DNA of 64,000 bases, taken from the NCBI RefSeq assembly GCF_044324785.1, contig NZ_CP172127.1; one strand, written 5' to 3'. This stretch comes from Escherichia coli (lineage in GTDB: Bacteria; Pseudomonadota; Gammaproteobacteria; Enterobacterales; Enterobacteriaceae). Below, in pieces: positions 2,763 through 50,290 of this stretch (positions are counted from its first letter, which is position 1; each line of letters starts with the position of its first letter). Under the pieces are notes generated by a model. It worked only from the letters and a program-made list of their open reading frames with translations. It had not been told where the DNA came from and made no database searches. The translations under genes were made by a program, and so were the position numbers.

Positions 2763-3854
2763 ATGCGTTTTCTGCGCAGACCAATATCGCTGCGCCAACG
2801 GCTGATATTGACCATCGGGGCCATTTTGTTGGTGTTTGAGCTGATCAGCGTCTTCTGGCTATGGCATGAAAGTACCGAGCAGATTCAGCTGTTTGAGCAG
2901 GCGCTACGCGACAATCGCAACAACGATCGCCACATCATGCGTGAGATCCGCGAGGCGGTCGCCAGCCTGATTGTCCCCGGCGTCTTTATGGTCAGCCTGA
3001 CGCTATTTATCTGCTATCAGGCGGTACGCCGCATCACCCGGCCGCTGGCGGAGCTGCAAAAAGAGCTGGAAGCGCGCACCGCCGACAATTTAACGCCTAT
3101 TGCCATTCACAGTGCCACCCTCGAAATCGAAGCGGTGGTTTCGGCGTTAAACGATCTGGTCAGTCGCCTGACCAGCACGCTGGATAACGAAAGGTTGTTT
3201 ACCGCTGACGTCGCGCACGAACTGCGAACGCCACTGGCGGGGGTGCGTTTGCATCTGGAACTGCTGGCGAAAACGCATCACATTGATGTAGCACCGTTAG
3301 TGGCACGGCTTGATCAGATGATGGAGAGTGTCTCCCAGCTACTGCAACTGGCGCGTGCCGGACAGTCATTTTCTTCCGGGAATTATCAACATGTAAAACT
3401 GCTGGAAGATGTCATTCTCCCCTCGTATGACGAACTCAGTACCATGCTCGACCAGCGCCAGCAAACCCTGCTATTGCCAGAGAGCGCCGCCGACATCACC
3501 GTTCAGGGTGATGCAACCCTGCTGCGGATGTTATTGCGAAACCTGGTAGAAAATGCCCATCGTTACAGCCCGCAAGGCAGCAACATTATGATTAAGCTGC
3601 AAGAAGATGGCGGAGCGGTCATGGCCGTTGAAGATGAAGGACCGGGTATTGATGAGAGTAAATGCGGGGAGTTGAGTAAAGCGTTTGTACGTATGGACAG
3701 CCGTTATGGCGGGATTGGTCTGGGGTTAAGTATTGTCAGCCGCATTACACAGTTGCATCACGGGCAGTTTTTCCTGCAAAACCGGCAAGAAACTTCCGGC
3801 ACGCGGGCCTGGGTACGGCTGAAGAAAGATCAGAACGTGGCAAACCAGATATAA
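2763..3854 (+). CDS. basS: Sensor histidine kinase BasS (PmrB)
   Basis: 363 aa from ATG 2763; TM segments, H-box ADVAHELRTPL, ATPase G-boxes. Confidence 0.9.
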   Translation: MRFLRRPISLRQRLILTIGAILLVFELISVFWLWHESTEQIQLFEQALRDNRNNDRHIMREIREAVASLIVPGVFMVSLTLFICYQAVRRITRPLAELQKELEARTADNLTPIAIHSATLEIEAVVSALNDLVSRLTSTLDNERLFTADVAHELRTPLAGVRLHLELLAKTHHIDVAPLVARLDQMMESVSQLLQLARAGQSFSSGNYQHVKLLEDVILPSYDELSTMLDQRQQTLLLPESAADITVQGDATLLRMLLRNLVENAHRYSPQGSNIMIKLQEDGGAVMAVEDEGPGIDESKCGELSKAFVRMDSRYGGIGLGLSIVSRITQLHHGQFFLQNRQETSGTRAWVRLKKDQNVANQI

Positions 3855-3919
3855 AGAAAGCTGCTGACCACCAGCACGCTGAACACGGTAGTTAAACTTT
3901 CATAAACACGGTTTTTCAT
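3830..3919 (-). CDS. pmrR: Small membrane protein PmrR (29 aa), antisense-overlapping the basS 3' end
   Basis: Reverse strand reads atgaaaaaccgtgtttatgaa... = MKNRVYESLTTVFSVLVVSSFLYIWFATF*; below the 60-aa ORF-track cutoff. Confidence 0.7.
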   Translation of the reverse strand: MKNRVYESLTTVFSVLVVSSFLYIWFATF

Positions 3920-3988
3920 TGCACTCTCCTCCGTTAACCTGGAGGAGAGTATGCGCGTCAGAGATTAAGTGAACCTTAAGAGTTCAAT

Positions 3989-8900: not shown

Positions 8901-9223
8901 AAAAAATTCTTCCTTAAAGCAAATTTTGTTACTTTTATTTAGCCAGATTGTTTTTGAGTTCTGTTTTCGGCTTTTATAATTACTGCAAGAAATAATTTTA
9001 TATTTAGCGTGTTGTTTTTTATTAGAATAAATAACGTCTTCCGATACGTTTAAAACGTCAGAAAGATAAAAATATCATTTGAATTAAAAAAAGAACAAGT
9101 AGAGCATTAACCTTATCTTAAATAATAAATGGAGGCAAAAAGATTATTTTCTTTTTGCGTTTCCTTTCAAATGAAAACGATCGTCGTCTAAAATCAGCAG
9201 TACCCCCGACAAACTCAGGGATT

Positions 9224-9236
9224 TTGTGTATAATTG
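9224..9236 (+). promoter_or_regulatory. Extended -10 promoter element (TGTGTATAAT) for phnA
   Basis: ttttgtgtataattg about 65 bp upstream of the phnA ATG within an AT-rich divergent intergenic region. Confidence 0.45.
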
Positions 9237-9301
9237 CGGCCTTTTTCGGCAATCTGCCGTTTTTTGGCGCTTTTGCCCTGCTGACTTTTGAGGAAATCCA
9301 C

Positions 9302-9637
9302 ATGTCATTACCACACTGCCCAAAATGCAACTCCGAATACACCTACGAAGATAACGGCATGTACATCTGCCCGGAATGTGCCTACGAATGGAACGACGCA
9401 GAACCTGCACAGGAAAGCGACGAGCTGATCGTTAAAGATGCTAACGGCAATCTGCTGGCTGACGGCGACAGCGTTACCATCATTAAAGATCTGAAGGTGA
9501 AAGGTAGCTCTTCCATGCTGAAAATTGGCACCAAAGTGAAAAACATCCGCCTGGTTGAAGGCGACCATAACATCGATTGCAAAATCGACGGTTTTGGTCC
9601 GATGAAACTGAAATCTGAGTTTGTGAAAAAGAACTGA
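9302..9637 (+). CDS. phnA: Zinc-ribbon protein PhnA (YjdM)
   Basis: 111 aa, [30 protein letters not shown] with CxxC...CxxC; internal Met of the longer ORF 9155..9637. Confidence 0.9.
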
Positions 9638-9653
9638 TTGTATTGTGATCGGT

Positions 9654-9735
9654 AAGCCGGATAAGGCGCTCGCGCCGCATCCGGCAACGATGCCGACAGC
9701 CTGATGCGACGCTGACCGCGTCTTATCAGGCTTCC
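9654..9735. repeat. REP/BIME palindromic repeat cluster
   Basis: gccggataaggcgctcgcgccgcatccggca ... gcgacgctgaccgcgtcttatcaggc. Confidence 0.8.
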
Positions 9736-9796
9736 CTCTCATCTGTATAAATTTCGAACTACACTTAACTGGCTTCTCTTAACTGAGGTCACCATC

Positions 9797-10240
9797 ATGC
9801 CGTTAAGTCCCTACCTCTCTTTTGCCGGTAACTGTGCCGACGCAATTGCTTATTATCAACGTACGTTGGGCGCTGAACTGCTCTATAAAATCAGCTTCGG
9901 CGAAATGCCAAAATCAGCGCAGGACAGCGCCGAGAACTGCCCTTCCGGAATGCAATTTCCCGATACCGCCATCGCCCACGCCAATGTGCGCATTGCCGGA
10001 AGCGATATCATGATGAGCGATGCTATACCGTCAGGAAAAGCCAGCTACTCCGGCTTTACGCTGGTGCTCGATTCGCAACAGGTCGAAGAAGGGAAACGCT
10101 GGTTTGACAATCTTGCCGCCAACGGAAAAATCGAAATGGCCTGGCAGGAAACTTTCTGGGCGCATGGCTTCGGCAAAGTCACCGATAAATTTGGCGTACC
10201 GTGGATGATTAATGTCGTCAAACAACAACCAACGCACTAA
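9797..10240 (+). CDS. phnB: Glyoxalase/bleomycin-resistance-fold protein PhnB (YjdN)
   Basis: 147-aa ORF; position between phnA and phnC. Confidence 0.85.
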   Translation: MPLSPYLSFAGNCADAIAYYQRTLGAELLYKISFGEMPKSAQDSAENCPSGMQFPDTAIAHANVRIAGSDIMMSDAIPSGKASYSGFTLVLDSQQVEEGKRWFDNLAANGKIEMAWQETFWAHGFGKVTDKFGVPWMINVVKQQPTH

Positions 10241-10266
10241 CCCGCCGGGAGGGCCGCCCTCCCGCA
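10241..10266 (+). terminator. GC-rich hairpin after phnB
   Basis: ccgggagggccgccctcccg inverted repeat. Confidence 0.5.
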
Positions 10267-10298
10267 CTGTCATCGAAATCTCGTTAACTCTTCATCCG

Positions 10299-10327
10299 TT
10301 AGTCACTTTTAGTTAACAAAATCGTCA
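10299..10327 (+). promoter_or_regulatory. Pho boxes (PhoB-binding 7-bp direct repeats at 11-bp periodicity) of the phnC promoter
   Basis: TTAGTCA-cttt-TAGTTAA-caaa-ATCGTCA, followed by AT-rich -10-like aataat, about 45 bp upstream of phnC. Confidence 0.6.
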
Positions 10328-10372
10328 CAATAATCCGCCACGATGGAGCCACTTTTTTAGGGAGGCTGCATC

Positions 10373-11161
10373 ATGCAAACGATTATCCGTGTCGAGAAGC
10401 TCGCCAAAACCTTCAATCAGCATCAGGCGCTGCACGCGGTTGATCTGAACATTCATCACGGTGAAATGGTGGCTCTGCTTGGGCCGTCGGGTTCCGGCAA
10501 ATCCACCCTTTTACGTCACTTAAGCGGTTTGATTACCGGCGATAAATCTGCCGGTAGCCATATCGAGCTGCTGGGCCGCACAGTCCAGCGCGAAGGCCGC
10601 CTGGCACGCGATATCCGCAAAAGCCGCGCCAACACCGGCTACATCTTCCAACAATTCAACCTGGTGAATCGCCTGAGCGTACTGGAGAACGTGCTGATTG
10701 GCGCGCTCGGCAGCACGCCATTCTGGCGCACCTGTTTTAGCTACTTCACCCGCGAGCAGAAACAGCGCGCGTTACAGGCGCTGACCCGCGTTGGCATGGT
10801 GCATTTTGCCCATCAGCGCGTTTCCACCCTCTCCGGCGGGCAACAGCAGCGTGTGGCGATTGCCCGCGCGCTGATGCAGCAGGCGAAGGTGATTCTGGCG
10901 GACGAACCCATCGCCTCGCTGGACCCGGAATCAGCGCGCATCGTGATGGACACCCTGCGCGACATCAACCAGAACGACGGCATTACCGTGGTCGTCACGC
11001 TGCATCAGGTGGATTACGCCCTGCGCTACTGCGAACGCATCGTCGCCCTGCGCCAGGGGCACGTCTTCTACGACGGCAGCAGCCAACAGTTTGATAACGA
11101 ACGCTTTGATCATCTCTATCGCAGCATCAACCGCGTCGAAGAGAACGCGAAAGCTGCCTGA
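10373..11161 (+). CDS. phnC: Phosphonate ABC transporter ATP-binding protein PhnC
   Basis: 262 aa; Walker [13 protein letters not shown] signature LSGGQQQR. Confidence 0.93.
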
Positions 11162-11185
11162 CATCCCCATCATTGAGGAAAACGA

Positions 11186-12202
11186 ATGAACGCTAAGATA
11201 ATTGCCTCGCTGGCCTTCACCAGCATGTTCAGCCTCAGCACCCTGTTAAGCCCGGCGCACGCCGAAGAGCAGGAAAAGGCGCTGAATTTCGGCATTATTT
11301 CAACGGAATCACAGCAAAACCTGAAACCGCAATGGACGCCGTTCTTACAGGATATGGAGAAGAAGCTGGGCGTAAAGGTCAACGCCTTCTTTGCCCCGGA
11401 CTACGCGGGCATTATCCAGGGGATGCGCTTCAATAAAGTGGATATCGCCTGGTACGGCAACCTGTCTGCGATGGAAGCGGTGGATCGCGCCAACGGTCAG
11501 GTCTTCGCCCAGACAGTCGCGGCGGATGGATCGCCAGGTTACTGGAGCGTGTTGATCGTCAACAAAGACAGTCCGATCAACAACCTGAACGATCTGCTGG
11601 CGAAGCGTAAAAATCTCACCTTTGGCAATGGCGATCCTAACTCCACCTCTGGCTTCCTCGTCCCCGGCTACTACGTCTTCGCCAAAAACAATATCTCCGC
11701 CAGCGACTTCAAGCGCACCGTCAACGCCGGGCATGAAACCAACGCGCTGGCCGTCGCCAACAAGCAGGTGGATGTGGCGACCAACAACACCGAGAACCTC
11801 GACAAGTTGAAAACCTCCGCACCGGAGAAGCTCAAAGAGCTGAAAGTGATCTGGAAATCGCCGCTGATCCCAGGCGATCCGATCGTCTGGCGCAAAAATC
11901 TGTCCGAAACCACCAAAGACAAGATCTACGACTTCTTTATGAACTACGGCAAAACGCCGGAAGAGAAAGCGGTGCTGGAGCGCCTGGGATGGGCCCCGTT
12001 CCGCGCCTCCAGCGACCTGCAACTGGTGCCGATTCGCCAACTCGCACTGTTTAAAGAGATGCAGGGCGTAAAAGGTAATAAAGGGCTGAATGAGCAGGAC
12101 AAGCTGGCAAAAACCAGCGCCATTCAGGCGCAACTGGATGACCTGGACCGCCTGAACAACGCGTTAAGCGCGATGAGTTCGGTGAGTAAAGCGGTGCAGT
12201 AA
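11186..12202 (+). CDS. phnD: Phosphonate ABC transporter periplasmic binding protein PhnD
   Basis: 338 aa with signal peptide (…LLSPAHAEEQ). Confidence 0.92.
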   Translation: MNAKIIASLAFTSMFSLSTLLSPAHAEEQEKALNFGIISTESQQNLKPQWTPFLQDMEKKLGVKVNAFFAPDYAGIIQGMRFNKVDIAWYGNLSAMEAVDRANGQVFAQTVAADGSPGYWSVLIVNKDSPINNLNDLLAKRKNLTFGNGDPNSTSGFLVPGYYVFAKNNISASDFKRTVNAGHETNALAVANKQVDVATNNTENLDKLKTSAPEKLKELKVIWKSPLIPGDPIVWRKNLSETTKDKIYDFFMNYGKTPEEKAVLERLGWAPFRASSDLQLVPIRQLALFKEMQGVKGNKGLNEQDKLAKTSAIQAQLDDLDRLNNALSAMSSVSKAVQ

Positions 12203-12209
12203 ATCGTAA

Positions 12210-12295
12210 GTCGGATAAGACGCCACGGCGTCGCATCCGACAATGTGCAGACGTTGATGCCGGATGCGGTGCAAGCACCTTATCCGGCCTACAGA
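12210..12295. repeat. REP/BIME palindromic repeats inside the phn operon (phnD-phnE spacer)
   Basis: gtcggataagacgccacggcgtcgcatccgaca ... gccggatgcggtgcaagcaccttatccggcc. Confidence 0.8.
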
Positions 12296-12307
12296 CCGGA
12301 GCCAAAC

Positions 12308-13087
12308 ATGCAAACCATCACCATCGCCCCACCCAAGCGCAGCTGGTTCTCGCTTCTGAGCTGGGCCGTTGTTCTCGCCGTGCTGGTCGTCTCGTGGCAG
12401 GGCGCGGAAATGGCCCCGCTCACGCTTATCAAAGACGGCGGCAACATGGCGACGTTCGCCGCCGACTTCTTCCCGCCCGATTTCAGCCAGTGGCAGGATT
12501 ACCTCACCGAAATGGCCGTCACGCTGCAAATCGCCGTCTGGGGCACCGCGCTGGCGGTGGTTCTCTCCATCCCCTTTGGCCTGATGAGCGCCGAAAACCT
12601 GGTGCCGTGGTGGGTTTACCAGCCCGTACGCCGCCTGATGGACGCCTGCCGCGCCATTAACGAGATGGTCTTCGCCATGCTGTTCGTGGTCGCCGTCGGT
12701 CTCGGTCCGTTCGCTGGCGTACTGGCGCTGTTTATCCACACCACCGGCGTGCTCTCCAAACTGCTTTCCGAAGCGGTAGAAGCAATTGAACCCGGTCCGG
12801 TGGAAGGTATTCGCGCCACCGGTGCCAACAAGCTCGAAGAGATCCTCTACGGCGTGCTGCCGCAGGTGATGCCGCTGCTGATCTCCTACTCCCTCTATCG
12901 CTTCGAATCCAACGTCCGTTCGGCCACCGTTGTTGGCATGGTCGGCGCGGGCGGGATCGGCGTCACCCTGTGGGAAGCGATTCGCGGTTTCCAGTTCCAG
13001 CAAACCTGCGCCCTGATGGTGCTGATTATCGTCACGGTCAGCCTGCTGGATTTCCTCTCTCAACGGTTGCGTAAGCACTTTATCTGA
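12308..13087 (+). CDS. phnE: Phosphonate ABC transporter permease PhnE (intact reading frame)
   Basis: 259 aa from ATG 12308 ([14 protein letters not shown]...), multi-TM permease; the ORF-track 5' extension from 12245 reads through the REP. Confidence 0.88.
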
Positions 13088-13107
13088 TAAGCGAGGCATT
13101 GATATCT

Positions 13108-13833
13108 ATGCACTTGTCTACACATCCGACCAGCTACCCAACACGCTATCAGGAGATAGCCGCAAAACTTGAGCAGGAGCTTCGTCAACACTACCGCTGC
13201 GGCGACTATCTTCCCGCCGAGCAGCAACTGGCGGCGCGCTTTGAGGTGAACCGCCACACCCTGCGCCGCGCCATCGACCAACTGGTGGAAAAAGGCTGGG
13301 TACAGCGCCGTCAGGGCGTCGGCGTGCTGGTGCTGATGCGCCCGTTCGATTACCCGCTCAACGCCCAGGCGCGTTTTAGCCAGAACCTGCTGGATCAGGG
13401 CAGCCATCCCACCAGCGAAAAACTGCTGTCTGTGCTGCGCCCGGCCTCCGGTCACGTCGCTGACGCGCTGGGGATAACCGAGGGCGAGAACGTTATCCAC
13501 CTGCGCACCCTGCGCCGGGTCAACGGCGTCGCGCTCTGTTTAATCGACCACTACTTTGCGGACCTCACCCTCTGGCCGACGCTGCAACGCTTCGACAGCG
13601 GCTCGCTGCACGATTTTCTGCGCGAGCAAACGGGGATTGCGCTGCGCCGCAGCCAGACGCGGATCAGCGCCCGCCGCGCCCAGGCCAAAGAGTGCCAGCG
13701 TCTTGAAATCCCGAATATGTCGCCGTTGCTGTGCGTGCGCACCCTTAACCACCATGACGGTGAAAGCAGCCCGGCGGAGTACTCCGTCAGCCTGACGCGC
13801 GCCGACATGATTGAATTCACTATGGAGCACTGA
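13108..13833 (+). CDS. phnF: GntR-family transcriptional regulator PhnF
   Basis: 241 aa from ATG 13108; N-terminal HTH, UTRA-like C-terminus. Confidence 0.9.
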   Translation: MHLSTHPTSYPTRYQEIAAKLEQELRQHYRCGDYLPAEQQLAARFEVNRHTLRRAIDQLVEKGWVQRRQGVGVLVLMRPFDYPLNAQARFSQNLLDQGSHPTSEKLLSVLRPASGHVADALGITEGENVIHLRTLRRVNGVALCLIDHYFADLTLWPTLQRFDSGSLHDFLREQTGIALRRSQTRISARRAQAKECQRLEIPNMSPLLCVRTLNHHDGESSPAEYSVSLTRADMIEFTMEH

Positions 13834-14286
13834 ATGCACGCAGATACCGCGACCCGCCAGCACTGGATGTCCGTACTGGCACACAGCCAACCGGCTGAAC
13901 TGGCAGCCCGCCTGAAGGCGCTGAACATCACCGCCGACTATGAGGTGATCCGCGCCGCCGAAACTGGCCTGGTGCAGATTCAGGCGCGGATGGGTGGCAC
14001 CGGCGAACGCTTTTTTGCTGGCGACGCCACGCTCACCCGCGCCGCCGTACGCCTGACTGACGGCACGCTCGGCTACAGCTGGGTGCTGGGGCGCGACAAA
14101 CAGCACGCCGAACGCTGCGCGCTGATCGACGCGCTGATGCAGCAAACCCGCCATTTTCAAAACTTATCAGAAACTCTTATTGCCCCGCTGGACGCTGACC
14201 GTATGGCACGCATTGCCGCACGCCAGGCCGAAGTGAACGCCAGCCGGGTCGACTTCTTTACGATGGTTCGCGGAGACAACGCATGA
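13834..14286 (+). CDS. phnG: C-P lyase complex subunit PhnG
   Basis: 150 aa; operon position. Confidence 0.9.
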
Positions 14287-14867
14287 CCCTGGAAACCGCT
14301 TTTATGCTTCCCGTGCAGGATGCCCAGCACAGTTTTCGTCGCCTGTTAAAGGCCATGAGCGAGCCGGGCGTGATTGTCGCCCTGCATCAGCTCAAGCGCG
14401 GCTGGCAGCCGCTGAATATCGCCACCACCAGCGTGCTGCTGACGCTGGCCGATAACGACACGCCGGTGTGGCTTTCTGCGCCATTAAGTAACGATATCGT
14501 CAGCCAGAGCCTGCGTTTTCATACCAACGCGCCGCTGGTCAGCCAGCCGGAACAGGCGACCTTCGCGGTAACGGATGAGGCGATTTCCAGCGAACAGCTC
14601 AACGCCCTTTCCACCGGCACCGCCGTTGCGCCAGAAGCGGGCGCGACGCTGATTTTACAGGTCGCCAGCCTGAGCGGCGGGCGCATGCTGCGCCTTACTG
14701 GCGCGGGCATTGCCGAAGAACGAATGATCGCCCCGCAGCTGCCAGAGTGCATTCTGCACGAACTCACCGAGCGCCCGCACCCGTTCCCGCTCGGCATCGA
14801 CCTGATCCTGACCTGCGGCGAGCGCCTGCTGGCTATCCCACGAACCACTCATGTGGAGGTGTGCTGA
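14283..14867 (+). CDS. phnH: C-P lyase complex subunit PhnH
   Basis: 194 aa; ATGA overlap with phnG and phnI. Confidence 0.9.
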
Positions 14868-15931
14868 TGTACGTTGCCGTGAAAGGGGGCGAGAAGGCGA
14901 TCGACGCCGCCCACGCCCTGCAAGAGAGCCGACGCCGGGGCGATACCGATTTGCCCGAACTGAGCGTCGCCCAGATTGAACAGCAGCTTAACCTCGCGGT
15001 AGATCGCGTGATGACCGAAGGCGGCATTGCCGACCGCGAACTGGCGGCGCTGGCGCTGAAACAGGCCAGCGGCGATAACGTCGAAGCAATTTTCCTGCTG
15101 CGCGCCTACCGCACCACGCTGGCGAAGCTCGCGGTAAGCGAGCCGCTCGACACCACGGAGATGCGTCTCGAACGGCGTATTTCAGCGGTTTATAAAGATA
15201 TTCCCGGCGGCCAGCTGCTTGGCCCAACCTACGACTACACCCATCGCCTGCTCGATTTCACCCTGCTGGCAAACGGCGAAGCGCCGACGCTGACCACAGC
15301 CGACAGCGAACAACAGCCGTCGCCGCACGTTTTCAGCCTGCTGGCGCGTCAGGGGCTGGCGAAGTTTGAAGAAGATAGCGGCGCACAGCCGGACGACATC
15401 ACCCGCACGCCGCCGGTTTACCCCTGCTCACGCTCCTCCCGCCTGCAACAATTAATGCGCGGCGACGAAGGCTATTTGCTGGCACTGGCCTACTCCACCC
15501 AGCGTGGTTACGGACGCAATCATCCGTTCGCAGGCGAAATCCGCAGTGGCTATATCGACGTGTCGATTGTGCCGGAAGAGCTGGGATTTGCGGTGAACGT
15601 CGGCGAACTGCTGATGACCGAATGTGAAATGGTCAACGGTTTTATCGACCCGCCGGATGAGCCGCCGCACTTCACGCGCGGCTACGGGCTGGTGTTCGGC
15701 ATGAGCGAGCGCAAAGCGATGGCGATGGCGCTGGTTGACCGCGCTCTGCAAGCCCCGGAGTACGGCGAGCACGCGACAGGCCCGGCGCAGGATGAAGAGT
15801 TCGTGCTGGCGCATGCCGACAACGTCGAAGCCGCAGGCTTTGTCTCGCACCTTAAACTCCCGCACTACGTCGATTTCCAGGCCGAACTGGAGCTACTCAA
15901 ACGTCTGCAACAGGAGCAGAACCATGGCTAA
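14867..15931 (+). CDS. phnI: C-P lyase complex subunit PhnI
   Basis: 354 aa from ATG 14867 ([12 protein letters not shown]...) overlapping the phnH stop. Confidence 0.9.
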   Translation: MYVAVKGGEKAIDAAHALQESRRRGDTDLPELSVAQIEQQLNLAVDRVMTEGGIADRELAALALKQASGDNVEAIFLLRAYRTTLAKLAVSEPLDTTEMRLERRISAVYKDIPGGQLLGPTYDYTHRLLDFTLLANGEAPTLTTADSEQQPSPHVFSLLARQGLAKFEEDSGAQPDDITRTPPVYPCSRSSRLQQLMRGDEGYLLALAYSTQRGYGRNHPFAGEIRSGYIDVSIVPEELGFAVNVGELLMTECEMVNGFIDPPDEPPHFTRGYGLVFGMSERKAMAMALVDRALQAPEYGEHATGPAQDEEFVLAHADNVEAAGFVSHLKLPHYVDFQAELELLKRLQQEQNHG

Positions 15932-16769
15932 TCTGAGCGGCTACAACTTTGCCTACCTCGACGAGCAGACCAAACGCATGATCCGCCGCGCCATCTTAAA
16001 AGCGGTGGCGATCCCCGGTTATCAGGTGCCGTTTGGCGGGCGCGAGATGCCGATGCCATACGGCTGGGGAACTGGTGGTATCCAGCTTACCGCCAGCGTG
16101 ATTGGCGAAAGCGACGTGTTGAAGGTGATTGACCAGGGCGCGGATGACACCACCAACGCCGTGTCGATTCGCAACTTCTTTAAGCGCGTGACCGGGGTAA
16201 ACACCACTGAACGTACGGACGATGCGACGCTTATCCAGACGCGTCACCGCATCCCCGAAACGCCGCTGACCGAAGATCAGATCATTATCTTCCAGGTGCC
16301 AATCCCGGAACCGCTGCGCTTTATCGAGCCGCGCGAAACGGAAACCCGCACTATGCACGCGCTGGAGGAGTACGGCGTGATGCAGGTGAAACTGTATGAA
16401 GATATCGCCCGCTTCGGTCATATCGCCACCACTTATGCCTATCCGGTGAAGGTGAACGGGCGCTACGTGATGGACCCGTCGCCGATCCCGAAATTCGATA
16501 ACCCCAAAATGGACATGATGCCCGCCCTGCAGCTGTTCGGCGCAGGACGCGAGAAGCGCATCTATGCGGTGCCGCCGTTTACCCGCGTGGAAAGCCTCGA
16601 TTTCGACGATCACCCGTTCACCGTTCAACAGTGGGATGAGCCGTGCGCCATCTGCGGATCGACCCACAGCTATCTCGACGAAGTGGTACTGGATGACGCC
16701 GGAAACCGCATGTTTGTCTGCTCCGATACCGATTATTGCCGCCAACAGAGCGAGGCAAAAAACCAATGA
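15924..16769 (+). CDS. phnJ: C-P lyase core subunit PhnJ
   Basis: 281 aa from ATG 15924 (MANLSGYNFAYLDEQTKRMIRR...), C-terminal Cys cluster CAICGS...C. Confidence 0.9.
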   Translation: MANLSGYNFAYLDEQTKRMIRRAILKAVAIPGYQVPFGGREMPMPYGWGTGGIQLTASVIGESDVLKVIDQGADDTTNAVSIRNFFKRVTGVNTTERTDDATLIQTRHRIPETPLTEDQIIIFQVPIPEPLRFIEPRETETRTMHALEEYGVMQVKLYEDIARFGHIATTYAYPVKVNGRYVMDPSPIPKFDNPKMDMMPALQLFGAGREKRIYAVPPFTRVESLDFDDHPFTVQQWDEPCAICGSTHSYLDEVVLDDAGNRMFVCSDTDYCRQQSEAKNQ

Positions 16770-17524
16770 ATCAACCGTTACTTTCGGTCAATAACCTGAC
16801 CCACCTTTACGCGCCGGGCAAAGGCTTTAGCGATGTCTCTTTTGATTTATGGCCGGGGGAAGTGCTGGGCATCGTCGGGGAGTCCGGCTCCGGGAAGACC
16901 ACGCTGCTGAAATCAATCTCCGCGCGCCTGACGCCGCAGCAGGGGGAGATTCGCTATGAAAACCGCTCCCTCTATGGCATGAGCGAAGCCGACCGCCGCC
17001 GTTTACTGCGCACCGAATGGGGCGTGGTACATCAGCATCCGCTCGACGGCCTGCGCCGCCAGGTGTCGGCAGGCGGCAATATCGGCGAGCGGCTGATGGC
17101 GACCGGGGCGCGTCATTACGGCGACATCCGCGCCACCGCGCAGAAGTGGCTGGAGGAGGTGGAGATTCCCTCCAACCGGATCGACGACCTGCCGACCACC
17201 TTTTCCGGCGGTATGCAGCAACGTTTGCAGATTGCCCGCAACCTGGTGACGCATCCGAAGCTGGTGTTTATGGACGAGCCAACCGGCGGGCTGGATGTAT
17301 CGGTACAGGCGCGCCTGCTCGATCTGCTGCGCGGTCTGGTGGTGGAGCTGAATCTGGCGGTGGTGATTGTCACCCACGATCTGGGCGTCGCCCGCCTGCT
17401 GGCGGACCGTTTGCTGGTGATGAAACAGGGGCAAGTGGTGGAGAGTGGGTTAACCGACCGCGTGCTCGACGACCCGCATCATCCGTATACCCAGCTGCTG
17501 GTGTCATCGGTTTTGCAGAATTGA
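16766..17524 (+). CDS. phnK: C-P lyase system ABC-type ATPase PhnK
   Basis: 252 aa; Walker A GESGSGKTT; ATGA overlap with phnJ. Confidence 0.9.
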   Translation: MNQPLLSVNNLTHLYAPGKGFSDVSFDLWPGEVLGIVGESGSGKTTLLKSISARLTPQQGEIRYENRSLYGMSEADRRRLLRTEWGVVHQHPLDGLRRQVSAGGNIGERLMATGARHYGDIRATAQKWLEEVEIPSNRIDDLPTTFSGGMQQRLQIARNLVTHPKLVFMDEPTGGLDVSVQARLLDLLRGLVVELNLAVVIVTHDLGVARLLADRLLVMKQGQVVESGLTDRVLDDPHHPYTQLLVSSVLQN

Positions 17525-17617
17525 GCCAGTGCCGGATACGGCGTAAACGCCTTATCCGGCCGACAAATGCGCTCCCCGTAGGTCGGATAAGACACGTCAG
17601 CGTCGCATCCGACACCT
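17525..17617. repeat. REP/BIME palindromic repeats in the phnK-phnL spacer
   Basis: gccggatacggcgtaaacgccttatccggcc ... gtcggataagacacgtcagcgtcgcatccgaca. Confidence 0.8.
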
Positions 17618-17634
17618 GAACCACGAGGCGAAAA

Positions 17635-18315
17635 ATGATTAACGTACAAAACGTCAGTAAAACCTTCATCCTGCACCAGCAAAACGGCGTGCGCCTGCCC
17701 GTCTTACAACGTGCCTCGCTCACCGTCAACGCAGGCGAATGCGTGGTGCTTCACGGCCACTCCGGCAGCGGAAAATCAACCCTGCTGCGCTCGCTGTACG
17801 CCAACTATCTGCCCGACGAAGGGCAAATCCAGATCAAACACGGTGACGAATGGGTCGATCTGGTCACCGCGCCAGCGCGCAAAGTGGTGGAGATCCGCAA
17901 AACCACCATCGGCTGGGTGAGCCAGTTTCTGCGCGTCATCCCGCGTATTTCGGCACTGGAAGTGGTGATGCAGCCGCTGCTCGATACCGGCGTACCGCGT
18001 GAAGCCTGCGCCGCTAAAGCCGCCCGATTACTGACGCGCCTGAACGTGCCTGAACGCCTGTGGCACCTGGCACCATCGACCTTCTCCGGCGGCGAACAGC
18101 AGCGCGTCAACATCGCGCGCGGTTTTATCGTCGACTATCCGATTCTGCTGCTGGATGAACCCACCGCCTCGCTGGACGCTAAAAACAGCGCCGCGGTGGT
18201 GGAACTAATTCGCGAAGCCAAAGCCCGTGGCGCGGCCATCGTCGGTATCTTCCATGACGAAGCCGTACGCAATGACGTCGCCGACCGCCTGCACCCAATG
18301 GGAGTCTCTTCATGA
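17635..18315 (+). CDS. phnL: C-P lyase system ABC-type ATPase PhnL
   Basis: 226 aa; Walker [10 protein letters not shown]. Confidence 0.9.
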
Positions 18316-19448
18316 TTATCAATAACGTCAAACTGGTGCTGGAAAACGAAGTGGTGCACGGTTCACTGGAAGTACAGGATGGCGAAATTCGCGCCTTTGC
18401 CGAAAGCCAGAGCCGCCAGCCGGAAGCGATGGACGGCGAAGGTGGCTGGCTACTACCCGGCCTGATTGAGCTGCATACCGACAACCTCGATAAATTCTTC
18501 ACCCCGCGCCCGAAAGTCGACTGGCCCGCCCATTCGGCGATGAGCAGCCACGACGCGCTGATGGTGGCAAGCGGCATCACCACCGTACTGGACGCCGTGG
18601 CGATTGGTGATGTGCGCGACGGCGGCGATCGGCTGGAGAATCTGGAGAAGATGATCAACGCCATCGAAGAGACGCAGAAACGCGGCGTCAACCGCGCCGA
18701 GCACCGCCTGCACCTGCGCTGCGAACTGCCGCACCACACCACGTTGCCGCTGTTTGAAAAACTGGTGCAGCGCGAACCGGTGACGCTGGTATCGCTGATG
18801 GACCACTCGCCAGGCCAGCGCCAGTTCGCCAATCGCGAGAAGTATCGCGAATATTATCAGGGCAAATATTCCCTCACCGATGCGCAGATGCAGCAGTACG
18901 AAGAAGAGCAATTGGCGCTCGCCGCACGCTGGTCACAACCTAATCGCGAAACCATCGCCGCAATGTGCCGCGCGCGACACATTGCCCTCGCCAGCCACGA
19001 TGACGCCACGCACGCCCACGTTGCCGAATCCCACCAGCTTGGCAGCGTGATCGCCGAATTTCCCACTACGTTCGAAGCGGCACAAGCCTCGCGCAAGCAT
19101 GGCATGAACGTGCTGATGGGCGCGCCGAATATCGTGCGCGGCGGTTCGCACTCCGGCAACGTGGCGGCCAGTGAACTGGCGCAGCTTGGCCTGCTGGATA
19201 TCCTCTCTTCCGACTACTACCCCGCCAGCCTGCTCGATGCGGCATTTCGCGTCGCCGATGACGAGAGCAACCGCTTTACGCTGCCGCAGGCGGTGAAGCT
19301 GGTGACTAAAAATCCGGCGCAGGCGCTTAATCTTCAGGATCGCGGGGTGATTGGCGAGGGCAAACGCGCCGACCTGGTGCTGGCGCATCGCAAGGGCAAC
19401 CACATTCATATCGACCACGTCTGGCGTCAGGGTAAAAGGGTGTTCTGA
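18312..19448 (+). CDS. phnM: Amidohydrolase-family enzyme PhnM
   Basis: 378 aa; metal-dependent hydrolase fold, HTD motif. Confidence 0.9.
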
Positions 19449-20005
19449 TGACGGGAAAACTGATTTGGTTAATGGGGGCCTCTGGCTCCGGAAAAGACAG
19501 TCTGTTGACGGAACTCCGCCAGCGGGAACAAACTCAGTTACTGGTGGCGCATCGCTACATCACGCGCGATGCCAGCGCCGGAAGCGAAAATCATATCGCC
19601 CTGAGCGAGCAGGAGTTTTTTACCCGCGCGGGGCAAAATCTGCTGGCCTTAAGCTGGCACGCCAACGGCCTGTATTATGGCATCGGCGTCGAGATTGACC
19701 TCTGGCTGCACGCTGGATTTGACGTGGTGGTCAACGGCTCACGCGCCCATCTGCCGCAGGCGCGGGCGCGCTATCAATCGGCGCTGCTGCCCGTTTGTTT
19801 ACAGGTTTCGCCAGAGATCCTGCGCCAGCGCCTGGAAAACCGTGGTCGTGAAAATGCCAGTGAAATTAACGCCCGACTAGCACGCGCTGCCCGCTATACT
19901 CCTCAGGATTGCCATACGCTCAATAATGACGGCAGCCTGCGCCAGTCGGTCGACACGCTGCTGACGCTGATTCATCAGAAGGAGAAACACCATGCCTGCT
20001 TGTGA
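19448..20005 (+). CDS. phnN: Ribose 1,5-bisphosphate phosphokinase PhnN
   Basis: 185 aa; P-loop GASGSGKDS. Confidence 0.9.
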
Positions 20006-20426
20006 GCTTCGCCCGGCTACGCAGTACGACACCGACGCAGTTTACGCGCTGATTTGTGAGCTAAAACAGGCGGAGTTTGACCACCACGCGTTTCGCGTGG
20101 GCTTTAACGCCAACCTGCGCGACCCAAACATGCGCTACCATCTGGCGCTACTGGATGGCGAAGTTGTCGGCATGATCGGCCTGCATTTGCAGTTTCATCT
20201 GCATCATGTCAACTGGATCGGCGAAATTCAGGAGTTGGTGGTGATGCCGCAGGCGCGCGGCCTGAACGTCGGTAGCAAGTTGCTGGCGTGGGCAGAAGAA
20301 GAAGCCCGCCAGGCCGGGGCCGAAATGACCGAGCTTTCGACCAACGTGAAGCGCCACGACGCGCACCGTTTCTATCTGCGAGAAGGCTACGAGCAGAGTC
20401 ACTTCCGCTTCACCAAGGCGCTGTAA
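19992..20426 (+). CDS. phnO: GNAT acetyltransferase PhnO
   Basis: 144 aa; overlaps phnN 3' end. Confidence 0.9.
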
Positions 20427-20427
20427 C

Positions 20428-21186
20428 ATGAGCCTGACCCTCACACTTACTGGCACTGGCGGCGCACAGGGCGTTCCCGCATGGGGCTGTGAGTGCGTGG
20501 CCTGCGTCAGAGCGCGGCGCTCACCGCAGTATCGCCGCCAGCCATGTAGCGGCGTCGTGAAGTTTAACGACGCGATCACCCTGATCGACGCCGGGCTGCA
20601 CGATCTCGCCGATCGCTGGTCGCCCGGATCGTTCCAGCAGTTTTTGCTGACGCACTACCATATGGATCACGTGCAGGGACTGTTTCCGCTGCGCTGGGGC
20701 GTGGGCGATCAGATCCCGGTCTACGGCCCGCCGGATGAACAGGGCTGCGACGATCTGTTTAAACATTCGGGCCTGCTTGATTTCAGCCACACGGTGGAGC
20801 CATTTGTGATGTTTGATTTGCAGGGATTACAGGTCACGCCGCTGCCGCTCAACCATTCGAAACTCACTTTCGGCTATCTACTGGAAACGGCACATAGCCG
20901 GGTGGCGTGGCTGTCTGACACCGCAGGCCTGCCGGAAAAAACGCTGAAATTTTTACGCAATAATCAGCCACAGGTAATGGTGATTGATTGCAGCCACCCA
21001 CCGCGCGAGGATGCACCGCGTAATCACTGTGATTTAAATACCGTGCTTGCGCTGAATCAGGTTATCCGCTCGCCACGGGTGATTCTGACTCATATCAGCC
21101 ACCAGTTTGATGCGTGGCTGATGGAAAACGCACTGCCGTCGGGGTTTGAGGCGGGGTTTGATGGGATGGAGATTGGGGTGGCGTGA
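20428..21186 (+). CDS. phnP: Metallo-beta-lactamase-fold phosphodiesterase PhnP
   Basis: 252 aa; HxHxDH motif ([10 protein letters not shown]). Confidence 0.9.
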
Positions 21187-21220
21187 TGGGTGAGGGGCGA
21201 TGCCTGCTCTAAACTCAACA

Positions 21221-21550
21221 TCACCGCCCATACTCATCTTCCATTCTCCGCTCTTCATCCTCCAGTTGCCGACGCTCCTGATCAAGCTGGCGCTGGCGAT
21301 CGTCCAGCTGCCTGCGGCGATCTTCAAACTGGCGGCGGCGATCGTCATATTGTCTGCGCCGATCGTCGTTCACTTCACGCTGCCAGCCGTCGTCGCGCGA
21401 ATCTTCATAGTCTCGCCCACGGTCAGGGTTATAAGCATCGTTAATCGCCTGCTGAATATTGCCAATGGTGTCGTCGATAATATCGGCCTGGGCCGGAACG
21501 GTGGACAGCGTGAGCAGGGTGAATAAAAGAAATAGCGGAAAACGTTTCAT
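21221..21550 (-). CDS. yjdP: Secreted low-complexity heptad-repeat protein YjdP
   Basis: 109 aa, signal peptide then six heptads DDRRRQY / DDRRRQF / EDRRRQL ... Confidence 0.85.
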   Translation of the reverse strand: MKRFPLFLLFTLLTLSTVPAQADIIDDTIGNIQQAINDAYNPDRGRDYEDSRDDGWQREVNDDRRRQYDDRRRQFEDRRRQLDDRQRQLDQERRQLEDEERRMEDEYGR

Positions 21551-21599
21551 TAGCCAACCTCAAAAAGAAACTCTATCCACATTAGTCATTACTCATCCA

Positions 21600-21960
21600 T
21601 GCAAGTAGTGGATGAATCTCAATTTCTCCGCTGCTCTATTGCCGTAATCGCCTCCACGCGTTGTTGATGACGACCGCCTTCGTACTGCGCGCCCAGCCAC
21701 GCATCCACAATCATTTTTGCCAGTTCGAGGCCAACCACTCGTGAACCAAAAGCCAGTGCAACTTCACTGGCGTAATGCGGATAATCAGTGCGCTCTGACG
21801 ACCTGGTTCTTTATCAATCCCCTCACTCATTGACCATAAATACAAGGCTGGCACAGCAACGCGGAATCCTGCGGTGCCAGCGACATGACCGCCCATTGCT
21901 CCGGTACTTTTTTTAAAAAGAAACATCGGTTGCATTGATAAATATATAAAACACCTCATA
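21600..21960 (-). pseudogene. Possible gene remnant between yjdP and yjcS
   Basis: 82-aa ORF 21711..21959 (-) with adjacent out-of-frame protein-like segments; no convincing start/RBS. Confidence 0.3.
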
Positions 21961-22147
21961 TTATTTACGGAGATAATAAATTCGCGTGCTTTTCCCTCTT
22001 CAGCACAAATGCCTAATAAAATGGCTCGTTCCGCTCACACTTCCACTTATTAAAGTCGCAATTTCCCAATTATGATAACGCCAGCTTTAAATGACGTATT
22101 TTGCATGGGTTACATATTTACGACACAAATGATAAATGGAGATTTAT

Positions 22148-29378: not shown

Positions 29379-31526
29379 ATGAAAAAAGTCGTCACGGTTT
29401 GCCCCTATTGCGCATCAGGTTGCAAAATCAACCTGGTCGTCGATAACGGCAAAATCGTCCGGGCGGAGGCAGCGCAGGGGAAAACCAACCAGGGTACCCT
29501 GTGTCTGAAGGGTTATTATGGCTGGGATTTCATTAACGATACCCAGATCCTGACCCCGCGCCTGAAAACCCCCATGATCCGTCGCCAGCGTGGCGGCAAA
29601 CTCGAACCTGTTTCCTGGGATGAGGCACTGAATTACGTTGCCGAGCGCCTGAGCGCCATCAAAGAGAAGTACGGTCCGGATGCCATCCAGACGACCGGCT
29701 CCTCGCGTGGTACGGGTAACGAAACCAACTATGTAATGCAAAAATTTGCGCGCGCCGTTATTGGTACCAATAACGTTGACTGCTGCGCTCGTGTCTGACA
29801 CGGCCCATCGGTTGCAGGTCTGCACCAATCGGTCGGTAATGGCGCAATGAGCAATGCTATTAACGAAATTGATAATACCGATTTAGTGTTCGTTTTCGGG
29901 TACAACCCGGCGGATTCCCACCCAATCGTGGCGAACCACGTAATTAACGCTAAACGTAACGGGGCGAAAATTATCGTCTGCGATCCGCGCAAAATTGAAA
30001 CCGCGCGCATTGCTGACATGCACATTGCACTGAAAAACGGCTCGAACATCGCGCTGTTGAATGCGATGGGTCATGTCATTATTGAAGAAAACCTGTACGA
30101 CAAAGCTTTCGTCGCTTCCCGTACAGAAGGCTTTGAAGAGTATCGTAAAATCGTTGAAGGCTACACGCCGGAGTCGGTTGAAGATATCACCGGCGTCAGC
30201 GCCAGTGAGATTCGTCAGGCGGCGCGGATGTATGCCCAGGCGAAAAGCGCCGCCATCCTGTGGGGCATGGGTGTAACCCAGTTCTACCAGGGCGTGGAAA
30301 CCGTGCGTTCTCTGACCAGCCTCGCGATGCTGACTGGTAACCTCGGTAAGCCGCATGCGGGTGTAAACCCGGTTCGTGGTCAGAACAACGTGCAGGGTGC
30401 CTGCGATATGGGCGCGCTGCCGGATACGTATCCGGGATACCAGTACGTGAAAGATCCGGCTAACCGCGAGAAATTCGCCAAAGCCTGGGGCGTGGAAAAC
30501 CTGCCTGCTCATACCGGCTATCGCATCAGCGAGCTGCCGCACCGCGCAGCGCATGGCGAAGTGCGTGCCGCGTACATTATGGGCGAAGATCCGCTGCAAA
30601 CTGACGCGGAGCTGTCGGCAGTACGTAAAGCCTTTGAAGATCTGGAACTGGTCATCGTTCAGGACATCTTTATGACCAAAACCGCGTCGGCTGCGGATGT
30701 TATTTTACCATCAACGTCGTGGGGCGAGCATGAAGGCGTGTTTACTGCGGCTGACCGTGGCTTCCAGCGTTTCTTCAAGGCGGTTGAACCGAAGTGGGAT
30801 CTGAAAACGGACTGGCAAATCATCAGTGAAATTGCCACTCGTATGGGTTATCCGATGCACTACAACAACACCCAGGAGATCTGGGATGAGTTGCGTCATC
30901 TGTGCCCGGATTTCTACGGTGCGACTTACGAGAAAATGGGCGAACTGGGCTTCATTCAGTGGCCTTGCCGCGATACTTCAGATGCCGATCAGGGGACTTC
31001 TTATCTGTTTAAAGAGAAGTTTGATACCCCGAACGGTCTGGCGCAGTTCTTCACCTGCGACTGGGTAGCGCCAATCGACAAACTCACCGACGAGTACCCG
31101 ATGGTACTGTCAACGGTGCGTGAAGTTGGTCACTACTCTTGCCGTTCGATGACCGGTAACTGTGCGGCACTGGCGGCGCTGGCTGATGAACCTGGCTACG
31201 CACAAATCAATACCGAAGACGCCAAACGTCTGGGTATTGAAGATGAGGCATTGGTTTGGGTGCACTCGCGTAAAGGCAAAATTATCACCCGTGCGCAGGT
31301 CAGCGATCGTCCGAACAAAGGGGCGATTTACATGACCTACCAGTGGTGGATTGGTGCCTGTAACGAGCTGGTTACCGAAAACTTAAGCCCGATTACGAAA
31401 ACGCCGGAATACAAATACTGCGCCGTGCGCGTCGAGCCGATCGCCGATCAGCGCGCCGCCGAGCAGTACGTGATTGACGAGTACAACAAGTTGAAAACTC
31501 GCCTGCGCGAAGCGGCACTGGCGTAA
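29379..31526 (+). CDS. fdhF: Formate dehydrogenase H (selenocysteine-containing molybdoenzyme); in-frame UGA at 29796..29798 encodes Sec
   Basis: ORFs 29379..29798 and 29847..31526 share one frame, separated only by one TGA; N-terminal 4Fe-4S Cys motif CPYCASGC; combined 715 aa. Confidence 0.92.
29796..29845 (+). other. SECIS element (SelB-binding mRNA hairpin) directly 3' of the Sec UGA
   Basis: tgacacggcccatcggttgcaggtctgcaccaatcggtcggtaatggcg, matching my recollection of the E. coli fdhF SECIS. Confidence 0.85.
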
Positions 31527-50010: not shown

Positions 50011-50254
50011 AGATTGCAGCGTTATCGAGCCGTATACCGTTCTGGATTGCGATAAAAAATCGTCTGAGATGACAAAAATATTGCGGCTAAAAAGTATACT
50101 TTTACACTGGCGAAGAAACGTCGGTGACATACAATTAAAGCATCAACACCAACCGGAACCTCCACCACGTGCTCGAATGAGGTGTGTTGACGTCGGGGGA
50201 AACCCTCCTGTGTACCAGCGGGATAGAGAGAAAGACAAAGACCGGAAAACAAAC

Positions 50255-50290
50255 TAAAGCGCCCTTGTGGCGCTTTAGTTTTGTGTTTGC
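50255..50290. terminator. Perfect 13-bp-stem hairpin with flanking T/A runs (bidirectional terminator-like)
   Basis: aaactaaagcgcc-cttgt-ggcgctttagttt; a partial second copy of the right arm occurs at 50418..50445. Confidence 0.6.

Follow-up and report, generated by a model that had tools for sequence, protein, structure and literature searches.

Two repeat units keep phnE in frame in an Escherichia coli phn operon

Introduction

In Escherichia coli, the PhnCDE ABC importer has PhnE as its membrane permease subunit, and in strain K-12 the phnE gene is cryptic because an 8-bp tandem repeat is present there three times instead of twice (PMC7566553). When K-12 loses one of these units, growth on phosphonates is restored (PMC6469041, PMC4759930, PMC3463581); in particular, deletion of 5'-GCTGGCGT at ORF positions 407-414 returns both the reading frame and transport (PMC6469041). 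An uninterrupted phnE raises the question of whether it is the standard functional allele of its lineage, a K-12-like allele that has reverted, or an open frame in an operon that is defective elsewhere. We addressed this question in a stretch of 64,000 nucleotides of E. coli DNA (hereafter, the window; contig NZ_CP172127.1 of assembly GCF_044324785.1), where an original prediction had called phnE intact and had described K-12 as the carrier of a cryptic allele with an 8-bp expansion. This description of K-12 was right, as both the alignment with W3110 described below and the literature (PMC6469041, PMC7566553, PMC3463581) agree with it.

The phnE reading frame and its product

The phnE gene occupies positions 12308-13087 of the plus strand. 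Its frame opens with an ATG at 12308 and closes with a TGA at 13085-13087, and the 780 nt correspond to 259 codons plus the stop with no internal stop codon. A Shine-Dalgarno GGAG (12298-12301, +) lies 6 nt 5' of the ATG. In a profile search, the translation matched TIGR01097, the NCBIfam equivalog for PhnE, scoring 311.5 bits where the cut-off is 216.7 (E = 4e-93), and profile positions 8-251 of 252 aligned to residues 16-258 of the protein. Such a frame is far beyond chance, and the coordinates, the 259 codons and the gene name initially proposed all hold. An antisense ORF of 311 aa (12164-13099, -) spans the whole of phnE, and was set aside as probably a by-product of the G+C-rich coding sequence.

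The EAA-type loop, with the consensus EAA-x3-G-x9-I-x-LP, is a cytoplasmic element that couples the permease to the ATPase. It is recognizable in the PhnE translation as E166-G-I-R-A-T-G172 ... L184-P185, which agrees with the consensus at E, G, L and P. Over its full length, the protein is 100% identical to WP_001193500.1, which is carried by TUM1886, GF60 and several unrelated strains; with respect to TUM1886, 7 of 780 nt differ and the protein is identical. Experimental demonstration of phosphonate or phosphate transport is confined to the PhnE of a K-12 revertant, whose protein sequence is the same as that of the window (PMC6469041). From the intactness of the gene and the identity to a tested protein we infer that the strain is Phn-proficient, and the source strain is predicted from its sequence to use phosphonates, unlike K-12.

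The region upstream of phnE is variable. A spacer with REP/BIME elements separates phnD from phnE in both the window (12203-12307, 105 nt) and K-12, and is 89 nt long in one related locus. Other strains (L007, L008, L016 and L017) have a spacer of 60-256 nt with a distinct CCCTCTCCC/GGGAGAGGG palindrome family, and the Shine-Dalgarno block ACGGAGCCAAACATG is the sole part common to these otherwise differing spacers. In three of the four alternative-spacer strains (L007, L008 and L017), a stop codon lies in frame 15 nt 5' of the phnE ATG; two of their proteins are the identical 259 aa and the third is one residue off. Two candidate starts further upstream were rejected: the ORF list proposes a GTG at 12245, and the MG1655 record takes the ATG at 12257, which is 51 nt upstream of the phnE ATG. 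Both fall within the REP-bearing spacer, and the stop in these three strains argues against either. The position of that stop thus supports the ATG at 12308 over the MG1655 start.

The 8-bp repeat in the window and in K-12

Alignment with phnE of K-12 W3110 gives a sole length difference, namely one 8-nt gap at ORF position 406. The 8-bp tract of the window (12713-12728, +; codons 136-141) is composed of two units, GCTGGCGT followed by ACTGGCGC, and the W3110 tract of three, GCTGGCGT GCTGGCGT GCTGGCGC. RefSeq marks the K-12 gene as frameshifted, whereas the window gene is without a frameshift. In particular, the K-12 product loses the reading frame past about residue 138 and terminates near residue 190, and is therefore without the EAA-type loop (E166-P185); the two-unit frame reads through this loop and the C-terminal membrane segments, which are lost from the K-12 product. 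The window phnE is open because it carries two GCTGGCGT-repeat units and not three, and the features of the K-12-type cryptic allele (three GCTGGCGT copies, the frameshift and the premature stop) are absent from it. The description of phnE as uninterrupted is borne out by the alignment and the unit count, two against three.

The same relationship emerges when one unit is removed from the K-12 gene in silico, which yields a 259-aa protein identical to the PhnE of the window. At the DNA level, this in-silico revertant and the window gene differ at 25 positions, of which 25 are synonymous and 0 non-synonymous. A dN of 0 versus 25 synonymous changes indicates purifying selection on phnE.

The phn operon and the region upstream of phnC

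PhnCDE and the C-P lyase work together in a mechanism that is well established for these protein families. PhnD is the periplasmic receptor for phosphonate (or phosphate), the membrane channel is provided by PhnE and PhnC hydrolyses ATP for energy; PhnG to PhnM, together with PhnN and PhnP, then run and complete the C-P lyase pathway, freeing phosphate. In the window, phnE adjoins phnC and phnD beside the C-P lyase genes, and phnCDEFGHIJKLMNOP is collinear with both K-12 and GF60. Indeed, the first 21 kb of the window are gaplessly collinear with E. coli GF60 at 98.6% identity, and the GF60 annotation agrees. All 14 genes from phnC to phnP have the order and the lengths of K-12, with normal start and stop codons and no internal stop, and their proteins are 96-100% identical to those of K-12 at the amino acid level. 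These include the ATPase gene phnC (10373-11161, +; 258/262 aa identical), the periplasmic binding protein gene phnD (11186-12202, +; 334/338 aa identical) and, in the segment 13108-21186 (+), the regulator gene phnF, the C-P lyase pathway genes phnGHIJKLM and phnNOP, all intact and of K-12 length.

The junctions between these genes are compact, and the ATGA-type overlap that the original prediction had assigned to most of them is found at 3 of 13 (G-H, J-K and L-M), so that 'most' is an overstatement. A one-base TGATG overlap joins two further pairs (H-I and M-N), and longer overlaps are present at I-J (8 nt) and N-O (14 nt), which brings overlaps of any kind to 7 of 13. The F-G junction abuts, and the remaining five gaps measure 1, 20, 24, 105 and 110 nt.

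An intact phnE may still reside in a phosphonate-negative strain if the defect lies elsewhere, for instance in a weakened PhoB activation at a variant pho box, an explanation that we regard as very unlikely for the window. The equivalent of the K-12 pho box and promoter (10296-10327, +), 5' of phnC, differs from K-12 by three substitutions, at 10297, 10312 and 10318; the T>C at 10297 presumably falls inside the first CTGT half-site, the position of the pho box being assumed here. Phosphate starvation leads PhoB to activate the phnC promoter (PMC4447250, PMC6469041), and in the work in which the pho-box consensus is given this promoter was the lowest-affinity PhoB target among those tested (PMC4447250). 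Thus, the T>C change could lower or delay induction from an already low-affinity pho box. Single-gene phn lesions also exist in other E. coli, as phnD has an internal stop in BY68 and phnF has one in ecoli019, with phnE intact in both; an open phnE alone is therefore no guarantee of a working operon. Against a defect of this kind, the 14 of 14 phn frames of the window are intact, with K-12 lengths and conserved proteins, and the upstream haplotype is retained with intact genes in TUM1886 and others, for a total of 418 of 5,426 complete E. coli genomes (the K-12 form is found in 4,930). The absence of non-synonymous change in phnE next to 25 synonymous substitutions further argues for ongoing selection on function.

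Repeat alleles among complete E. coli genomes

The distribution of the repeat alleles was obtained by allele-specific megablast in 5,426 complete E. coli genomes, with queries designed so that non-target alleles give no 28-base seed. Two units with GTG at the unit boundary followed by CTG were present in 2,223 genomes, and two units with GTG followed by CTA in 1,200. The allele of the window, two units with GTA, was found in 408 genomes. Two-unit alleles thus total at least 3,831 of the 5,426 genomes. Three units were present in about 1,000 genomes and four or more in 14, with alleles of 4, 7 and 10 units confirmed among them. A phnE match was obtained in 5,395 genomes, of which about 550 fell outside all the allele-specific queries; three genomes sampled from this unclassified group had two units and a SNP in the flank (CCATTC or GCTGGTGT). 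The 408 genomes with the GTA allele of phnE are close in number to the 418 with the promoter haplotype described above.

The expanded alleles are found on at least three phnE haplotype backgrounds, as judged from nine related loci. The first is K-12-like and includes three and four units, the second is that of a bovine strain 17 nt from K-12, with three units, and the third carries seven and ten units. None of the expanded alleles inspected is in frame. In a spread sample of 39 three-unit genomes, about two thirds came from people, livestock or sewage, and the phnE of a pig isolate, annotated as frameshifted, is 1 nt from that of K-12. The cryptic allele of K-12 is, then, no laboratory oddity, being present in about one fifth of complete E. 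coli genomes. A functional phnE in the vast majority of isolates has been reported (PMC6469041), a statement to which our tally of unit numbers adds detail.

Origin of the allele in the window

The original prediction had left two possibilities for an intact gene, a Phn-proficient lineage or a revertant, of which the former stands and the latter does not. At position 12721 (+), where the second unit begins, alignment and unit counts reveal a synonymous G>A that converts Val138 from GTG to GTA; GTG is the codon in K-12 and in most E. coli. A revertant would derive from a K-12-like three-unit cryptic allele by loss of one unit through replication slippage, and such three-to-two slippage is frequent and easily selected in K-12 (PMC6469041, PMC4759930), with three-unit alleles being common, in about 1,000 of 5,426 genomes. 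The contraction of three GCTGGCGT copies, however, gives GCTGGCGTGCTGGCGC, and the window has instead GTA at the boundary, together with the 25 synonymous differences from K-12 in phnE, an operon that is 93-97% identical to K-12 in its DNA and a two-unit GTA haplotype shared by 408 of 5,426 complete genomes, among which a three-unit GTA allele had zero matches. An ancient cycle of expansion and contraction might have predated the G>A, but would leave no trace; all in all, reversion appears hardly credible as the origin of the open frame.

These data support inheritance of the window's phnE allele as a lineage haplotype and speak against a recent reversion. Judging from the sequence comparisons, it is very probably the standard functional, lineage-inherited, two-unit allele, which is the commonest state in E. 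coli. The observation on phnE is real but ordinary, as the phenomenon has been described before and is already known. For annotators, the consequence is that phnE should be labelled here as a normal gene and not as a pseudogene.

Slippage switching and the interrupted repeat

Reversible phase variation has been attributed to K-12 by Iqbal et al. 2004, in the form in which that work is cited in PMC6469041, and the expanded out-of-frame alleles are in keeping with the published picture, in which the tract is a switch prone to slippage. The question then arises of whether the tract of the window can still switch. With the G>A at 12721, exact repetition at period 8 shrinks from GCTGGCG to CTGGCG and amounts to 6 + 6 bases (CTGGCG..CTGGCG) in the window; the common two-unit alleles have 7 + 7 such bases, and the K-12 tract has 23 nt. 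Copy-number polymorphism is present for the GTG haplotypes, with the expanded OFF states (3, 4, 7 and 10 units) of perfect-repeat GTG alleles accounting for about 19% of complete genomes, whereas the GTA haplotype is represented by 408 two-unit and 0 three-unit genomes. A tentative reading, which we consider possible but rather doubtful, is that the synonymous substitution interrupts the repeat and leaves the phnE of this lineage effectively 'locked ON'. The contrast between GTG and GTA in expansion is suggestive only, because expansions of the CTA-flanked perfect-repeat haplotype are also rare (about 3 in 1,200) and because three-unit genomes may share a K-12-like ancestry. Indeed, common ancestry of most three-unit genomes with K-12-like strains could explain most of the contrast.

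REP/BIME elements in the phn spacers

The two longest gaps of the operon contain repetitive extragenic elements, as had been proposed from the sequence, and the presence of REP/BIME in both the phnD-phnE and the phnK-phnL spacers is confirmed by a Y and Z2-like pair in each, with an Rfam match in the former. In the phnD-phnE spacer (105 nt), the BIME (12206-12292) pairs a minus-strand Z2-like REP (12206-12241) with a plus-strand Y REP (12259-12292); in the phnK-phnL spacer (110 nt), it spans 17531-17613 and pairs a plus-strand Y REP (17531-17564) with a minus-strand Z2-like REP (17578-17613). In both cases the pairs are inverted repeats with oppositely oriented members, and lie outside the coding sequence.

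A REP pattern with a fixed loop missed these elements, as loop lengths vary, and was replaced by alignment to the Y and Z consensus and by looser motifs. Local alignment to the Y and Z REP consensus sequences gave identities in the two spacers of 29/34 and 31/34 for Y and of 26/32 and 28/32 for Z2. In the whole window, a two-part REP motif occurred only at the two minus-strand elements of the phn spacers, with 0 in shuffles, and a REP tail motif occurred 9 times versus 0.52 expected. Rfam naRNA4 (RF02564), a family derived from REP pairs, matches 12209-12289 with 64.6 bits, above its gathering score, and RNA folding against shuffles gave z = -4.0 for the phnD-phnE spacer and z = -3.7 for the phnK-phnL spacer. 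Both intra-operon REP pairs are ordinary BIMEs. The RefSeq records of MG1655 and W3110 list no REP features, and searching the literature for phn-operon REP elements returned nothing relevant. By analogy with malE-malF, the REP pairs most likely act as mRNA hairpins that would shield the upstream message. Another BIME is present in the yjdM-yjdN spacer (9655-9732, +), where RF02564 scores 85.5 bits, more than in the phnD-phnE spacer.

The surrounding window and its relatives

Downstream of the phn operon, between 21188 and 22135, the window lacks both the als operon (alsRBACEK) and the 5' part of rpiB, which are neighbours of phnP in K-12. What remains of rpiB is its last ~138 nt (about 21619-21756, -), adjoining yjdP (21221-21550, -), with yjcS beginning at 22136; the layout of the phnP-yjcS region in GF60 is similar. 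Elsewhere in the window, Rfam matches at gathering level were obtained for the sRNA STnc630 (3823-3988, -), for a SECIS element (29791-29845, +), which a comparison with GF60 places at the start of fdhF, and for the sRNA SraL (50142-50282, +).

Among the complete E. coli genomes of the collection, none exceeded about 98.7% identity to the window in the long stretches that were compared. The best identities were 98.1% over 9000-22000 and 98.4-98.7% over 30000-54000, yet the gene order is standard for E. coli. The source appears to be an under-sampled lineage of this species.

Comparison with known systems

The closest counterpart of the window gene is phn(EcoK+), that is, the allele of E. coli B and of K-12 derivatives that encodes WP_001193500.1. 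The two have in common the 259-aa protein, the two units and the operon context, and phn(EcoK+) differs from the window by synonymous DNA changes only, one of which is the G>A at 12721 inside the repeat, absent from the common GTG alleles. The cryptic allele of K-12, phn(EcoK0), recorded as pseudogene b4583, is like the window in its locus, in the motif and position of the repeat and in the REP/BIME spacer upstream; it differs in having three units and a frameshift, the window having one unit fewer and being in frame.

When the REP pairs are considered, the intercistronic REP/BIME elements of malE-malF and hisJ-hisQ offer a parallel, as in phn, too, a pair with stable hairpins is located between the genes for a binding protein (phnD) and a permease (phnE). 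The phnD-phnE spacer differs from them in that, in other E. coli, it carries another palindrome family.

Finally, the phnE tract can be compared with slipped-strand phase-variable (contingency) loci. Across the species it is similar to them, with 2, 3, 4, 7 and 10 units on at least three backgrounds. The tract of the window differs from such loci in being of minimum length and interrupted, with no copy-number variant of the GTA haplotype seen among the complete genomes.
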